The translations under genes and the position numbers were made by a program. DNA of 30,616 bases from a virus (lineage: Duplodnaviria; Heunggongvirae; Uroviricota; Caudoviricetes), in IMG/VR virus record IMGVR_UViG_2671180357_000001, positions 1 to 30,616 of that record; one strand, written 5' to 3'. The notes beneath the pieces were generated by a model. That model made no database searches, had not been told where the DNA came from, and saw nothing but the letters and a program-made list of their open reading frames with translations. Of this stretch, positions 738 to 30,147 are shown one piece after another (position 1 is the stretch's first letter; each line of letters begins with the position of its first letter).

Positions 738-2969
738 TTACTTCTGGTTATCATCACTGTTCATCCAGTACATGATGCCTAGCCTTGATATGGTTTTCTT
801 ATCTGATTCTGGAAGTGAGTTGTAAAACGGGCGCCAAGCAGAAGAGCGTCTTACAGTTGTATCAACGATGCTTTCTGGTGCTTGTTTTACTGCCAGCCTT
901 GCTGCTTTCTGGAATTCTGGTGAGCTAATTAGCTTTTCTGCAGATTCCATTGATGCAGCGCCGCCCATCGCCCTGATTTTGCTGGCGACTTTTGCCCCAA
1001 TTTCTGACCCAGCAACAGCACCTACTGCACTGAACGGTCCTGACACAGTTGAACCAACCGCAGTGCCAATGCGTTGGGAATGGTTAGCAACAAATTCATT
1101 TGCCGCAGTGACGCGATTAAACCGTTTGACGAACTCGTTTAGTCTTCCTGTAGTTATCTCGTAAGATTTTGCGTCTTTGATAGCCTTTGCGACCTTATAT
1201 ACATCGCTCAGACCTGACATAGTCTCTTTTGGTAAATGTCGGGCAAGATTGCGCATCTGCCCGTTTGCTAACATGTTTTGATACCAGTCAGCAAACCCTG
1301 CAGGATTAAAATCAGCGCCACGTTTTCCGTTCGAAAGCATATCCCGAAGACCTGTTCCCAGTAGCTCGGTTCTTAGCTTCCTGGACGGCGTGTTTTGCAT
1401 CAATTCACGAAATCCTTTGGCATCGCCTTTCGACATTGCCTGTAGTGCTGTAGTTGCTTTGCGAGAAACATCACCGTTCAGCGTTCTGCCAGTTAGATTA
1501 ATCATTTGCTCTTCCATGCTTTTTCGCATCTGAACAAGCCTCTGAGCAACTTCAAAATCACGTAATGCATTTGTCTCTGACAGCGCCGCCTTTTGATCAT
1601 CGGCGAGCGAACCGTAAAGCCTCGATAAAGCAGCGCGATCAGCATCTTTATATGGTCCAGAATTCTTATGAAGTGCATCACCAACAAGTCGTCGTTGCTT
1701 ATTGAGATTTGCATAAGTTAATGCGCCGTTCTTGCCTGGATTAACTGCCCGAAAGACTCTCTTTTCAATAGGGTCAAGGTTTTTCATCCCGCCAAGATCT
1801 TCTGCCACCTGTTTGAGCATTGACCTTGTTGATGGCGCATCAATTTTTGCACCTGCAGGCATCGCCTTTTCAACATTGCGATAAAGCTGGTCGCTTCGTT
1901 TCATCAGCGCAGACATTCTTCCATTGACCGTATCAATAAACTTGTCGCTCATACCAAGAGCATCTTTTGCACCGGAAACGCGATCAATTATCTCCCCCGC
2001 GCCCTGTGCTAGCTGCCTGATTGCTTCATTTTCCTGCACCTGTAGAGCAGAACCCGCACGGGACTTGATTGCTTGCTCAACTGCCTTGTATTGCTCGTTC
2101 CCGGAAAAGTGTGAAGGGAGTAATGAATCAACATTAAGCCTTTCAGCAGACTCCAGAACTTCAGCCTGAGGATTGATATCTAGTTCATCAAGTGATGAAG
2201 CGAGATTTGGCCTTTTTTGTGCTGCTACTGTGCGAACGACTTCCTCTGGGTTCCTCGTCGCAGGCGTCATTGGTACACCTTGTGCTACTCTTGCCTCTGC
2301 GGCATGAACCGCAGGATTTGTTGCTGCAGCGGCATCACCGGAGAATGGTGATGTTTCTGTTGGCGCAGTGGTCGCTCTCTGTGCAGATGTTTTATTGCCA
2401 CTAATTATATTTGATGCACCACGAACACCACGGGTAACGCCATTTATCAGGCCATGCGTAGCAATGTTAAGTCCGGCATTAATAGCGGCATTTTCGGCAA
2501 AATCACCCCGTTGATTCGCCGCGTCAGCGAGAGAACCAATGACCATGTTTCCAGCTACACCTGCTCCAGGAACAAGATAACCGCCTATTGACTCTCCAGC
2601 TTGCGCGTAGGGGTCTGTCGGTCTGTCTACTGGACGATAAACATCATCCAATACTTTTGGCCCCCCAAGCCCCTGACTGATTGCATTAATCAGACTTGCG
2701 CCACCCTGCAATACGTCAAATGGTATGTTTACCAGACCACGACCAGCCTGTTCTGCAATTTGCCCTGCACTTTGACCACCAGTGAGCCAATCGCCAGCTT
2801 GTTGCATCAATGATGGTTCTTCCCGTGTTGGTGCATTATTGGCCTGATTAACTGTTTGTTGCTGAACAGCCTGACCAGCAAAATACTCATCAATGGCGGT
2901 GCCAATATCTTCGGTGCTCGTACCATCAGGAAAGGTAAATGTCTTACCGTTTGCAGTTACTTTCATCAT
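738..2969 (-). CDS. Ejection/internal protein, P22 gp16-like
   Basis: Last gene of the gp7-gp20-gp16 order; N-terminus [15 protein letters not shown]; 743 aa with Ala/Gly-rich low-complexity stretches. Confidence 0.7.
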
Positions 2970-25264: not shown

Positions 25265-25293
25265 ATAATACGATATGTACTTTTGGAATGCAA
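25265..25293 (-). promoter_or_regulatory. pR candidate promoter (TTGCAT-N17-TATTAT) driving cro
   Basis: Minus-strand -35/-10 hexamers with 17-nt spacer; the spacer closely resembles the pL spacer. Confidence 0.5.
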
Positions 25294-25340
25294 ACAAAAA
25301 ATACATCTTGTGCATGGATGGTTTTAGTACAGAGCGTAAT
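25267..25340. promoter_or_regulatory. oR: three candidate 15-bp repressor operator sites (about 25267-25281, 25300-25314, 25326-25340)
   Basis: 6-3-6 sites of the form A(A/G)TACA-N3-(C/T)GT..., e.g. AATACGATATGTACT; the same motif recurs three times at oL. Confidence 0.5.
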
Positions 25341-25355
25341 AATAAGGATATGAAG

Positions 25356-26009
25356 ATGAAATGGTATGAACTGGCTAGATCCAGAATGAAAGAACTCGGC
25401 ATAACTCAAGAGAAGTTAGCTGAAGAGCTTGGTATGACGCAGGGTGGAATTGGTCACTGGTTGCGCGGATCTCGTCATCCATCTCTTGACGAGATTGGTG
25501 TGGTGTTTAAATACCTTGGTATTGATAACGTCTCATTCAACCACGACGGTACATTTTCACCTGTTGGCGAATACTCATCTGCCCCCGTTAAAAAACAATA
25601 TGAGTACCCTGTTTTTTCTCATGTTCAGGCCGGGATGTTCTCGCCTGAGCTTAGAACCTTTACCAAAGGTGATGCGGAGAGATGGGTCAGCACAACCAAA
25701 AAAGCCAGTGATTGTGCGTTTTGGCTTGAAGTTGAAGGTAATTCCATGACCGCACCAACAGGATCCAAGCCAAGCTTTCCTGACGGGATGTTAATTCTCG
25801 TTGACCCTGAGCAGGCTGTTGAGCCAGGTGATTTCTGCATAGCCAGACTTGGTGGTGACGAGTTTACCTTCAAGAAACTGATCAGGGATAGCGGTCAGGT
25901 GTTCCTACAACCACTAAACCCGCAATATCCAATGATCCCATGCAATGATAGCTGTTCCGTAGTAGGGAAAGTTATCGCCAGCCAGTGGCCTGAAGAGACA
26001 TTTAGTTAA
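25356..26009 (+). CDS. cI: CI-type prophage repressor (S24 LexA-like autopeptidase); C-terminal domain lambda cI-like, N-terminal HTH domain distinct
   Basis: ORF 25275..26009 trimmed to Met28; residues from [21 protein letters not shown] to the end are near-identical to recalled lambda cI, including the Ala-Gly cleavage site; N-terminal HTH differs. Confidence 0.85.
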
Positions 26010-26041
26010 CAGCCTCACCACTCTAAAACACACAACAATAA

Positions 26042-26069
26042 CCCGACCTTAGCGTCGGGTTTTCTTTTT
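26042..26069 (+). terminator. Rho-independent terminator after cI
   Basis: CCCGAC-CTTAGC-GTCGGG hairpin followed by TTTTCTTTTT. Confidence 0.6.
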
Positions 26070-26671: not shown

Positions 26672-26674
26672 GTG

Positions 26675-26899
26675 ATGAATCAGACATACATTCCATCATG
26701 CTTGAGAAATCTGCCAAAGCAGAAAGCAAAGCCCAGCAAGCAAGCCATAAAGGACGCTAAGGCAGAGGTTATTGATCAAGCAATACAATTGCTCAGGGAG
26801 GAGTTAAGAAGTGGCAAGCTCGAAGGAATGATGATGCCCTATCAGCGCGGATATCTATCGGCGATTAGTAAGTTGGAAGTATTGAAGAGTGAATTATGA
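26675..26899 (+). CDS. Hypothetical protein (74 aa), first gene downstream of N
   Basis: ORF track 26672..26899 begins at GTG; ATG at 26675 with GAGG upstream; Lys-rich, predicted helical; no family recognised. Confidence 0.5.
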   Translation: MNQTYIPSCLRNLPKQKAKPSKQAIKDAKAEVIDQAIQLLREELRSGKLEGMMMPYQRGYLSAISKLEVLKSEL

Positions 26900-26961
26900 A
26901 CTATCTGGAATTTCCGGATGGTTCATTATTTTGGCAGCAAACCACTTATTTGAGGTGAGAT

Positions 26962-27048
26962 ATGGAAGAAGAATTTGAAGAGTTCGAAGAGCATCCGCAG
27001 GATGTGATGGAACAATACCAGGACTATCCTTATGACTACGACTATTGA
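26962..27048 (+). CDS. Candidate acidic/aromatic micro-protein (28 aa)
   Basis: MEEEFEEFEEHPQDVMEQYQDYPYDYDY; GAGGTGA immediately upstream; 3' end overlaps the ral start by 17 nt; may be a coupling leader. Confidence 0.3.
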   Translation: MEEEFEEFEEHPQDVMEQYQDYPYDYDY

Positions 27049-27232
27049 TAAAAATCAATGGTGTGGACAATTCAAGCGATGCAATGGATGCAAGCTGCAA
27101 TCGGAATGCATGGTTAAGCCTGAAGAAATGTTTCCTGTAATGGAGGATGGGAAATATGTCGATAAATGGGCAATACGAACGACGGCAATGATTGCCAGAG
27201 AACTTGGTAAACAGAACAACAAGGCTGCCTAA
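27032..27232 (+). CDS. ral: Ral-like restriction alleviation protein
   Basis: 66 aa, MTTTIDKNQWCGQFKRCNGCKLQSECMV... matches recalled lambda Ral; position downstream of N. Confidence 0.7.
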   Translation: MTTTIDKNQWCGQFKRCNGCKLQSECMVKPEEMFPVMEDGKYVDKWAIRTTAMIARELGKQNNKAA

Positions 27233-27368
27233 TGGTGGCCTTTATTTTTGGCATAAACAACAGAATAAACACTGCACTGTGTATTCATTCCAACGAGTGA
27301 ATACACGGAGCAATGTCGCTCGTAACTAAACAGGAGCCGACTTGTTCTGATTATTGGAAATCTTCTTT

Positions 27369-27395
27369 GCCCTCCAGTGTGAGGGCAATTTTTTT
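27369..27395 (+). terminator. Rho-independent terminator just upstream of the EAKR-protein gene
   Basis: GCCCTC-CAGTGT-GAGGGC hairpin followed by AATTTTTTT. Confidence 0.55.
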
Positions 27396-27407
27396 GACGG
27401 AGGATAT

Positions 27408-28376
27408 ATGAGTGAAGTAACAGATTTAGTTGTTATTGAAAAAGCAAATGCAATGACTGTATTTCAGTCTGCCGACCAGATTGAAGAAATCCTTCAAAGG
27501 GTTGAACGTGAAGTTATGTCCTTTGTGCCTGATATCACAACGGCAAAGGGCAGAAAGGAGATCGCTTCTCTGGCGTATAAAGTTGCGCAGACGAAAACAT
27601 ATCTCGATGGTCTTGGCAAAGACCTTGTTGCTGAACTGAAGGAAATTCCAAAGCTAATTGATGCCAACCGCAAGACAGTGCGCGATCGCCTTGATGAACT
27701 GAAAGCCAAGGCACGCCAGCCTCTTACTGATTATGAAGAGGAACAGGCGCGGATTAAAGCCGAAGAAGAAGCTAAGGCAGCAGCTGAAGCTCTCGCAAAG
27801 CAAATTGAGTCTGACCATGAAATAGCGATTTTGATGGATCGCGAATTTGACCGCCAAAGAGAAGAGGCAAGACTCAAAGCGGAGCAGGAAAAGCGAGAGC
27901 ATGAAGAACGCTTAAAAAGAGAAGCTGAAGAGAAAGCCAGAGCAGAAGCCGAAGCAAAGGCAAAAGCCGAAATTGAAGCAGCAGCAAGGCGAGAAGCAGA
28001 AGCTAAGGCCGCAGCGGAACGTGCAGAGCGTGAACGCATTGAAGCCGAGCAACGAGCACAGCGCGAAGCAAAAGAGGCAGCAGAACGAGCTGAAAGAGAA
28101 AAGCAGGCGGCAATTGAAGCAGAACGCCGAAAAGCACAGGAGGAGGCGGAACGAATCCGGCGCGAGGCTGAAGCAAAAGAGCAAGCCAGAATAGCAGAAG
28201 AAAAAAGAATCAAGGACGAAGAAGAGCGCAGAGCAAAGGATAAAGCTCACCGGAAAGAAGTAAATAACAAAATACTTGCTGACCTTATCAAGGTTGGCGC
28301 ATCAGAAGATGTTGCTAAAAATATCATAACAGCCATCGCAAAAGGCGAAGTATTCGCAACAAAAATAACCTACTAA
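27408..28376 (+). CDS. Hypothetical coiled-coil protein with long Glu/Ala/Lys/Arg-rich central repeat region (322 aa)
   Basis: ORF 27354..28376 trimmed to Met19 (GGAGGA RBS); about 110-aa N-terminal region, about 170 aa of EAKAEAEARRE-type low complexity, short C-terminal region. Confidence 0.6.
   Translation: MSEVTDLVVIEKANAMTVFQSADQIEEILQRVEREVMSFVPDITTAKGRKEIASLAYKVAQTKTYLDGLGKDLVAELKEIPKLIDANRKTVRDRLDELKAKARQPLTDYEEEQARIKAEEEAKAAAEALAKQIESDHEIAILMDREFDRQREEARLKAEQEKREHEERLKREAEEKARAEAEAKAKAEIEAAARREAEAKAAAERAERERIEAEQRAQREAKEAAERAEREKQAAIEAERRKAQEEAERIRREAEAKEQARIAEEKRIKDEEERRAKDKAHRKEVNNKILADLIKVGASEDVAKNIITAIAKGEVFATKITY
27760..28280. repeat. Low-complexity GAA/GCA/AAA/CGN-rich coding repeat encoding the EAKR tract
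   Basis: Imperfect short repeats visible in the nucleotide sequence; they generate spurious antisense ORFs 27731..28213 and 27912..28250. Confidence 0.6.
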
Positions 28377-29631: not shown

Positions 29632-30147
29632 ATGGCAAGCAGAGGCGTAAATAAGGTGATCATTATTGGTCGCCTTGGGCATGATCCAGAAATCAGATAT
29701 TCACCATCAGGAACGGCATTTGCAAACCTTACAGTTGCTACGTCAGAGCAATGGCGTGATAAGCAAACTGGAGAGCAAAAGGAGCAGACGGAGTGGCACC
29801 GCGTGGTAATGAGCGGGAAACTGGCAGAAATTGCCAGCGAATATCTGCGAAAAGGCTCTGAGGTTTATCTTGAAGGCAAATTGCGGACAAGAAAATGGCA
29901 GGATCAAAGCGGACAGGATCGGTTCACTACCGAAGTTATCGTAGGAGTTGGTGGAACCATGCAAATGCTTGGTGGCAAGCAAGGAGGCAATGAACAGTCT
30001 TCACCTCAGCGAAATAACGGTAAGCAACAAAAACAGCAATCTCAGCAGCAGGGGAATCACAGCGAACCACCTATGGATTTTGACGACGATATACCCTTTG
30101 CACCAGTAACTCTCCCCTTCCCTCGTCACGCTATTCACGCAATTTAA
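29632..30147 (+). CDS. ssb: Single-stranded DNA-binding protein
   Basis: OB-fold N-terminus ([23 protein letters not shown]...), Gly/Gln-rich linker and acidic C-terminal tail DFDDDIPF; start overlaps the recombinase stop. Confidence 0.9.

Follow-up and report, generated by a model that had tools for sequence, protein, structure and literature searches.

Introduction

The closest described relative of the locus analysed here is the orf28-ral module of phage lambda. According to reviews, the Ral protein converts the type IA methyltransferase from maintenance to de novo methylation via HsdM's N-terminal domain (PMC3874165, PMC12707154), and a direct interaction of Ral with EcoKI is only suggested in reviews (PMC3874165; also PMC12707154). 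In the literature searchable for this analysis, the small open reading frame (ORF) that precedes ral, orf28 or lambdap47, is found only as a ‘hypothetical protein’, non-essential by CRISPR interference (CRISPRi) (PMC10695390), and in Delta(orf28-ral) strains, where it was deleted together with ral (PMC2327257). A textbook genome has carried orf28 as ‘hypothetical’ for four decades, while modern pipelines mostly drop it, and it is unannotated in P22, BTP1 and many E. coli prophage records. Here we analysed a stretch of 30,616 nucleotides (nt) from the virus record IMGVR_UViG_2671180357_000001 in IMG/VR, hereafter called the window, which represents a lambdoid phage whose early-left operon runs on the plus strand. 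Between the gene downstream of N and ral it contains two micro-ORFs, ORF A (20 codons) and ORF B (28 codons). We consider it reasonably probable that ORF B is a genuine, selected micro-protein that serves Ral/Lar-type alleviation of restriction as a partner or a modulator, and that ORF A is a hairpin plus a linker and not a gene.

Results

ORF B is orf28 of lambda

All sequence features reported in the initial annotation hold. ORF A occupies positions 26896..26958 (20 codons) and starts at an ATG that overlaps the stop codon of the preceding 75-amino-acid (aa) ORF (TGA, 26897..26899), while ORF B occupies 26962..27048 (28 codons), lies behind the Shine-Dalgarno (SD) sequence GAGGTGA at 26952..26958, and overlaps the start of ral (from 27032) by 17 nt, as it does in lambda. 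The ORF B peptide is also as acidic and aromatic as described, with 12 acidic and seven aromatic residues among its 28 and no Lys or Arg. What had gone unnoticed is that the two ORFs share a frame (they are a TGA plus one codon apart), that ORF A coincides with a strong hairpin, and that ORF B is lambda orf28.

The peptide is identical to lambda AAA96576.1 (orf28, lambdap47) at 28 of 28 residues, the only nucleotide differences being two synonymous Pro codons, and the same 87 nt are annotated as a coding sequence (CDS) in lambda J02459 (complement 34271..34357). An exact-sequence look-up returned AAA96576.1 and UniProt Q38269, on 182 contigs, with names that are all ‘hypothetical’ except for a ‘Ral’ mislabel. 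The lambda GenBank record (1225..1311 of locus L001) labels the orf28 CDS ‘ral(restriction alleviation;66)’, and UniProt/UniRef inherit this wrong name. ORF B matches phrog_16060, a 28-position family of unknown function, from end to end (hmmscan E = 7.1e-19, residues 1-28 on profile positions 1-28). No relative of ORF B was found in Pfam, NCBIfam or PDB, and neither Pfam nor NCBIfam holds a family for either micro-ORF. In a megablast search against a phage collection, the region from about 26926-26937 to the end of ral was 96-98% identical to lambda, 21, Sf6, HK544, DE3 and many Stx phages, and the 111-nt region is present in 899 of 5426 complete E. coli genomes. ORF B is therefore already known as an annotated ORF with function unknown, and it is the comparative evidence that upgrades it to a selected micro-protein.

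Coding selection on ORF B

Selection was assessed in eight sequences over the 18 codons outside the ral overlap. These sequences were retrieved through Ral or through nucleotide similarity of the ral region and are unbiased toward the protein sequence of the micro-ORF. The pooled Nei-Gojobori ratio of non-synonymous to synonymous differences (pN/pS) is 0.15 in the ORF B frame, compared to 4.35 and 1.2 in the other two frames, and variable alignment columns are distributed 3/5/16 over codon positions 1/2/3. All loci retrieved via Ral or the ral region carry ORF B in frame, and the homologues adjoin Ral genes from Salmonella, Providencia, Kluyvera, Pantoea and Erwinia. The P22 peptide is identical to that of lambda, while phage L and BTP1 differ from it by two and four substitutions, respectively. 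More distant versions are found in Providencia (MEEDIEEFDEHPDDDMRQYQDYPYEYDY), Pantoea (MDEEEFDEHPADDMSQYQDYPYEFDY), Erwinia (MEEFDQHPDDDMSQYQDYRYEY) and Kluyvera, the latter with a GTG start, 23 aa, and in-frame deletions of 9 nt and 6 nt. The conserved core reads [DE][DE]F[DE]EHPxD[DV]MxQYQDYP[YF][DE][YF]DY, with HP..M.QYQDYPY invariant.

A tblastn search of the phage collection with the 28-aa peptide gave no match, presumably owing to low-complexity filtering. Homologues were searched with a tandem of three natural peptide variants as query. When 1.84 billion representative proteins were searched exhaustively with a profile, only 23 members were returned, all of <=80 aa, the named ones among them coming from Enterobacterales. 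A scan of genome contigs for Ral yielded mostly lambda-like contigs with identical Ral in unrelated genera, which we read as contamination by lambda DNA, and the only useful loci from it were L028-L036. Given the conservation, the codon-position bias and the PHROG match (E = 7e-19), ORF B lies far beyond chance expectation, and these comparisons firmly indicate a real protein-coding gene whose peptide is under purifying selection across Enterobacterales phages.

The same 87 nt could in principle be conserved at the nucleotide level only, as a non-coding recombination linker or RNA element. P22 and lambda differ here by three synonymous sites, so that ORF B is more conserved between them than ral (83% nucleotide identity in the matched ral region), and the region adjoins a mosaic joint. 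However, variation falls mainly on third codon positions, the low pN/pS is found in the ORF B frame only, indels are in-frame, and there is no match in Rfam. The frame-specific pN/pS effectively refutes a nucleotide-only explanation, leaving it next to no probability.

Loci without ral and linkage to Ral and Lar

A degenerate-codon scan of IMG/VR for HPDDDMxxYQDYP returned 18 loci. In nine of them ral follows with an overlap of 17 or 11 nt. In the other nine, which lack ral, the ORF B stop is directly followed by the hairpin GGCTGCCTAACCCGCAGCC and a T-run, and this GGCTGCC..T-run element is the same as the one at the end of ral. The ral-less copies show synonymous or conservative (Y/F, D/E) variation in codons that were not fixed by the search pattern, including those of the C-terminal YDYDY, which overlap ral elsewhere. 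Every ral-less IMG/VR locus (9/9) has a Lar-family zinc-ribbon gene immediately upstream (PF14354, 33.8 bits vs a cut-off of 28.6; phrog_599), which in locus L130 overlaps the start of the micro-ORF by 14 nt. A metagenome scan added four Ral-linked and two Lar-linked loci as well as two stand-alone copies (L226, L236), each equipped with an SD and a terminator; in metagenome loci, too, a terminator directly after the stop was seen.

A longer form of 51-69 aa carries the acidic tail behind a Cys/His knuckle, PHECCxKCRxYxxPxxRxxHxC (P0115, P0116, P0118, P0126, P0128). P0116 and P0118 are common in Klebsiella, where the 56-aa form directly follows a 57-aa Lar (33% identical to the first Lar) with an ATGA overlap, while P0115, also a long form of 56 aa, directly precedes Ral with a 17-nt overlap. 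In the AlphaFold2 model of the Klebsiella long form, the knuckle is moderately confident (predicted local distance difference test score, pLDDT, ~78) and the acidic tail is without secondary structure (pLDDT ~62). In the Klebsiella prophage L242/L243, the pair of Lar and a 56/57-aa knuckle/acidic-tail protein is located after DnaB in a nin-like region instead of the early-left operon, and the gene behind the pair, beginning MTTDIT.., has the ATGACTACTGA overlap that is also seen at ral starts.

Excluding contigs duplicated between IMG/VR and the metagenome collections, the neighbour-independent retrievals comprise 13 loci with Ral, 11 with Lar, and two with neither. The architectures are a short form before Ral, a 77-aa Lar before a short form, a 57-aa Lar before a long form, and a long form before Ral. 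By hhalign, the profiles of Ral and Lar show no relation to each other (probability 0.6%). Gene neighbourhood thus clearly indicates that the orf28 family is genomically tied to two restriction-alleviation families, and no report of this linkage was found in the literature searchable for this analysis.

Two alternatives have to be weighed against a partnership in restriction alleviation. First, ORF B might be an independent host-takeover or anti-defence peptide, unrelated to Ral and Lar, that merely shares the slot after N and acts on another host target, possibly by acidic-tail or DNA mimicry. The pL operon encodes several small host-directed peptides, e.g. Kil and CIII, at least eight unrelated cassettes use the linker slot, Ral and Lar each occur without the micro-ORF, and the stand-alone copies L226 and L236 have their own SD and terminator, all of which would fit such a peptide. 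However, ORF B homologues overlap a Ral or Lar gene in 24 of the 26 neighbour-independent retrievals, the pair of Lar and acidic protein recurs in a different Klebsiella phage neighbourhood, and the long form occurs with either partner, so that we regard full independence as rather unlikely. Second, the tight, translationally overlapping gene pairs in both orders and a peptide net charge of about -12 are reminiscent of an antitoxin-like neutraliser, in which the acidic peptide would restrain a DNA-binding or DNase activity of its small Cys-rich partner. The Lar of the Rac prophage is indeed annotated as the endodeoxyribonuclease toxin RalR, which is controlled in K-12 by the small RNA RalA, and the acidic ORF is absent there. 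An overlapping pair with a toxin-family gene is seen in the Lar-linked loci, whereas the window pairs it with Ral, for which no toxicity is known and whose basic character is only mild. Together with the existence of stand-alone copies, this makes a neutraliser improbable.

ORF B and the start of ral

The likely SD of ral, AGGA (27020..27023), consists of conserved ORF B codons for Gln and Asp, and CAGGAY is also kept in loci without ral. A hairpin at 27033..27069 spans the end of ORF B (last codons and stop), the UG of the ral start codon, and ral codons 1-12. These features raise the possibility of a pure coupling leader, i.e. that ORF B exists only to unmask ral or to deliver ribosomes to it and that the peptide itself is functionless. 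A leader of this kind would agree with the 17-nt overlap and the ral SD inside ORF B, with the hairpin (-13 kcal/mol, z = -3.95) that holds both the ral AUG and the ORF B stop, with the 17- or 11-nt overlap in all Ral-linked loci, and with an ORF B stop (27046..27048) inside the start region of the gene to be regulated (ral ATG 27032). It should, however, occur only with a downstream gene and leave its peptide free to drift. Instead, the peptide is conserved at the amino-acid level (pN/pS 0.15) with a fixed 20-residue motif that a leader does not need, and it has been retained, with turnover at synonymous sites, in loci that have no gene behind it, whether it stands alone or after Lar. Nor does conservation of the hairpin extend to distant Ral loci: only the lambda, P22 and L types have it in strong form (-13 to -19 kcal/mol, in P22 and L at least as strong as in the window), and it was therefore rejected as a conserved feature of the family. 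Thus, a functionless leader is very improbable.

The initial annotation had left the choice between a coupling leader and a genuine micro-protein. The micro-protein is borne out by purifying selection and by its retention without ral, while coupling survives as an additional role: translation of ORF B plausibly helps ral initiation in this window, as a secondary function in cis, but since the peptide persists in loci without ral downstream, ORF B is more than a ral leader and coupling cannot be the sole reason for its existence.

Natural or assembly variants in which orf28 is fused to Ral were also observed (P0001, P0005, P0011). A 1-nt deletion in CAGGAC leads to the fusion MEEEF..MEQYQTIRMTTTID.., which forms a cluster of 76 member sequences in Logan assemblies, and an in-frame deletion joins the full orf28 to Ral residue W10. 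The AlphaFold2 model of the natural fusion P0011 is of low confidence (mean pLDDT 62, acidic part 51-55) and was treated as uninformative. A MAFFT alignment of the acidic proteins was discarded, as it placed them onto Ral rather than onto the N-terminus of the fusion.

ORF A is probably a hairpin and a linker

The first 31 nt of ORF A (26896..26926) form a perfect 14-bp stem with a 3-nt loop, followed by TATTTTGG. The minimum free energy of this hairpin is -20.2 kcal/mol (z = -5.4), none of 200 shuffled sequences folds as well, and it was also detected as a 19-nt inverted repeat with 84% complementarity. A stable stem-loop followed by a T-run is the signature of an intrinsic terminator, and its position after N and the 75-aa ORF is where the first leftward terminator is expected. 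The ORF A AUG is buried in the 14-bp stem. The stop of the 75-aa ORF is located at the foot of the stem (26897..26926), where a terminating ribosome would cover the 5' arm and could modulate termination.

The 3' part of ORF A lies in the linker GGCAGCAAACCACTTATTTGAGGTGAnATATG, a mosaic joint with homology breakpoints at 26926-26937. This linker of ~35 nt, with SD and ATG, is found behind various N genes and in front of at least eight unrelated cassettes that all start at the same ATG (L008-L011, L140-L219), among them orf28-ral, mEpX2_040, Stx2-II p114, mEp213 gp45 and an IME10 ORF. Several cassette products end in ..(N/D)KAA directly before the stop codon (Ral ..NNKAA, Stx2-II p114 ..YNKAA, mEp213 gp45 ..VDKAA), because these last codons form the stem of a shared downstream terminator.

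Across 80 IMG/VR loci, retrieved with a search pattern that required a near-exact 26-nt match, the 5' 45 nt of ORF A are essentially invariant, while its end varies with the cassette: the frame spans 12, 16, 18, 20, 23 or 25 aa or continues into the next gene. A TGG->TAG nonsense codon interrupts one copy (L205), and a different tiny frame (MKLGSKPLI) is open when other N types lie upstream. As the surrounding 3 kb contain 55 ORFs of >=20 aa, ORF A is unremarkable as an ORF.

In phage mEp506 (L003, 1725..1877), a TGA->TGG change in the SD fuses A and B into an annotated 50-aa ORF. The same change fuses ORF A to the following cassette elsewhere (also L152, L203; P0086, P0100), and such fusions are annotated as proteins of 50-106 aa. 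They probably underlie phrog_37429. A weak match to this family had made ORF A a candidate remnant of a longer gene, which is better explained by the annotated in-frame fusions to the next cassette and was rejected. In Rfam (E <= 1) only a sub-threshold match to MicX was found, downstream of ral, and taken as chance.

ORF A might still be a translated spacer that carries terminating ribosomes from the 75-aa ORF to the next SD by termination-reinitiation. The ATGA overlap with the upstream stop, a stop in or beside the SD or ATG of the next gene in almost every context, a frame shared with the next gene, and the natural tolerance of TGA->TGG fusions would be expected of such a spacer. Nevertheless, it has no recognisable SD, its AUG is enclosed in a 14-bp stem of -20 kcal/mol, synonymous variation that would demonstrate coding is lacking, its C-terminus varies and is cut short in the nonsense variant L205, a different frame is open after other N types, and an open frame of 20 codons is at chance level. 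We therefore consider a translated spacer quite improbable. ORF A is probably a by-product of a terminator-like hairpin and a linker rather than a gene, its sequence being conserved because the hairpin is followed by a shared ribosome-binding linker. The proposal of two coupled micro-ORFs accordingly fails for the first of them: its 5' half is the terminator-like hairpin, its 3' half belongs to the linker that the cassettes share, different cassettes give it different C-termini, and a nonsense codon interrupts one natural copy. Micro-ORF scans call for caution, since even a frame with an ATGA overlap may consist of no more than a terminator hairpin and a recombination linker.

Organization of the early-left region

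Table 1. Features of the early-left region, in window coordinates
Feature	Position	Strand	Evidence or remark
cI-like repressor	25275..26009		
N gene	ORF listed from GTG 26279, end 26671	+	
75-aa ORF, directly 3' of N	26672..26899	+	phrog_5305, function unknown; hypothetical in phi296, mEp506, mEpX2
Terminator-like hairpin and T-run tail	26896..26934	+	terminator scan, inverted repeat, folding
Micro-ORF A, 20 codons (MNYLEFPDGSLFWQQTTYLR)	ATG 26896, TGA 26956..26958	+	
Linker/mosaic joint with SD GAGGTGA (26952..26958) and ATG (TTTGGCAGCAAACCACTTATTTGAGGTGAGATATG)	26930..26964	+	
ORF B, 28 codons (MEEEFEEFEEHPQDVMEQYQDYPYDYDY)	ATG 26962, stop 27046..27048	+	lambda orf28 homologue
AGGA, likely SD of ral, 8 nt 5' of its ATG	27020..27023	+	sequence reading
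ral, antirestriction protein Ral, 66 aa	27032..27232	+	PF11058 E = 1.6e-48; phrog_1055
Hairpin over the ral start	27033..27069	+	-13.0 kcal/mol, z = -3.95
Terminator-like hairpin and T-run closing the orf28-ral cassette	27221..27252	+	terminator scan; -13.9 kcal/mol

The cassette is ordered as terminator-like hairpin, linker with SD, orf28, ral, and terminator (27221..27242 in the terminator scan; Table 1). The Ral protein of the window is 100% identical to Ral of lambda-like contigs, and its last codons (..AAGGCTGCCTAA..) are overlapped by the closing terminator-like hairpin at 27221..27252. A scan from the first hairpin to the ral terminator found no promoter-like site between the parts of the cassette; therefore, expression of orf28-ral should depend on N-antiterminated transcription from pL. 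The N protein of the window carries the arginine-rich stretch GNAKTRRHERRRKLAIERD, which we take to be a motif of the P22 type. This presumed P22-type N stands against a lambda-type orf28-ral module (~97% identity), with the homology breakpoint inside ORF A.

Other observations concern the wider surroundings. A bidirectional terminator-like hairpin (26040..26061, AACCCGACC..GGTCGGGTT) with a T-rich plus side is located between the cI-like gene and the N leader. Downstream of the cassette, a long ORF (27354..28376, probable start ATG 27408) comes right after a second terminator-like hairpin (27367..27388). Its product is extremely rich in Glu, Ala, Lys and Arg and is probably a coiled coil, and the repeat composition causes long spurious ORFs on the opposite strand. 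In an SSB-like ORF (29632..30147), the canonical acidic tip MDFDDDIPF is not C-terminal and is followed by 15 residues, which would be unusual if the tip must be terminal.

Discussion

A role of ORF B in restriction alleviation might be pictured as follows. ORF B would be translated from the N-antiterminated early-left transcript, and ribosomes reaching its stop would open the hairpin around the ral AUG, aiding ral initiation. The peptide itself, predicted to be disordered, would be a short linear acidic/aromatic motif that binds a conserved partner and serves as a partner or modulator when Ral/Lar-type proteins alleviate type IA restriction. Because of gene linkage, the likeliest partners would be Ral or Lar, both small and Cys-rich, or else the type IA methyltransferase as the target that the two have in common. 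In its most specific form, the orf28 family might be an overlooked component of restriction alleviation, a disordered peptide that works with Ral or Lar as a binding partner or as a co-effector on type IA HsdM/HsdS. We put this forward tentatively, as a possibility suggested by comparative sequence data.

Several points weigh against this role. Many of the linked loci are close relatives and represent ~4 independent architectures rather than 24, and the early-left slot is a general hotspot for accessory genes, which inflates co-location. Two loci (L226, L236) contain the micro-ORF with neither Ral nor Lar, and the two most divergent long forms also lack such a neighbour, so any partnership is not obligatory. 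Conversely, a Ral lineage in Citrobacter prophages has no micro-ORF, and in the Rac prophage of K-12 ralR (Lar) is followed by rcbA, with no acidic ORF. The hairpin at the ral start is weak or different in Providencia, Pantoea and L122. Moreover, CRISPRi knock-down of orf28 caused no plaque defect, in a host without an active type I system and with a knock-down that is polar (PMC10695390). In the Citrobacter freundii prophages (L137-L139), an unrelated 66-aa ORF (MAKITFGFCSAEKAH..) without a Pfam match precedes Ral with an ATGA overlap.

If the proposed role is true, a two-component reading would help to explain the mechanism of Ral, unresolved since 1986. The start/stop overlaps with two unrelated alleviation families turn this into a concrete and cheap question, i.e. 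whether Ral and Lar are one- or two-component systems.

Comparison with known systems

Coupled upstream ORFs and leader peptides share with ORF B a short frame, a strong SD, an end just inside the next gene, and a downstream start in a hairpin that upstream translation would open. In contrast to them, ORF B has a conserved peptide that is retained even in loci without a downstream gene, which makes it unlike a mere coupling device. DNA-mimic anti-restriction proteins such as T7 Ocr and ArdA resemble ORF B in their origin from phages or mobile elements, their very acidic composition, early position, and the context of anti-type-I restriction. Ocr and ArdA are folded dimers with ~100 or more residues per chain, whereas the ORF B peptides have 22-30 aa, are predicted to be disordered (pLDDT ~62), and have no sequence relation to such proteins (no match in Pfam, NCBIfam or PDB). 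A possible likeness to acidic C-terminal interaction tails, such as that of SSB, lies in the disorder, the acidic character, an aromatic/hydrophobic extreme C-terminus and the length of a linear motif; the SSB tip DDDIPF is a different motif from YQDYPYDYDY of ORF B.

Ral (PF11058) and Lar/RalR (PF14354) are the genomic partners of the micro-ORF, and all are tiny early phage proteins, but the micro-protein is homologous to neither. The closest counterpart remains lambda orf28 itself, with the same 28-aa peptide, an AAGGTGA/GAGGTGA SD, the 17-nt overlap with ral, and the downstream terminator. Only what lies upstream sets the two apart: sieB with its promoter region in lambda, and in the window an N that we presume to be of P22 type, the 75-aa ORF, and the terminator-like hairpin.

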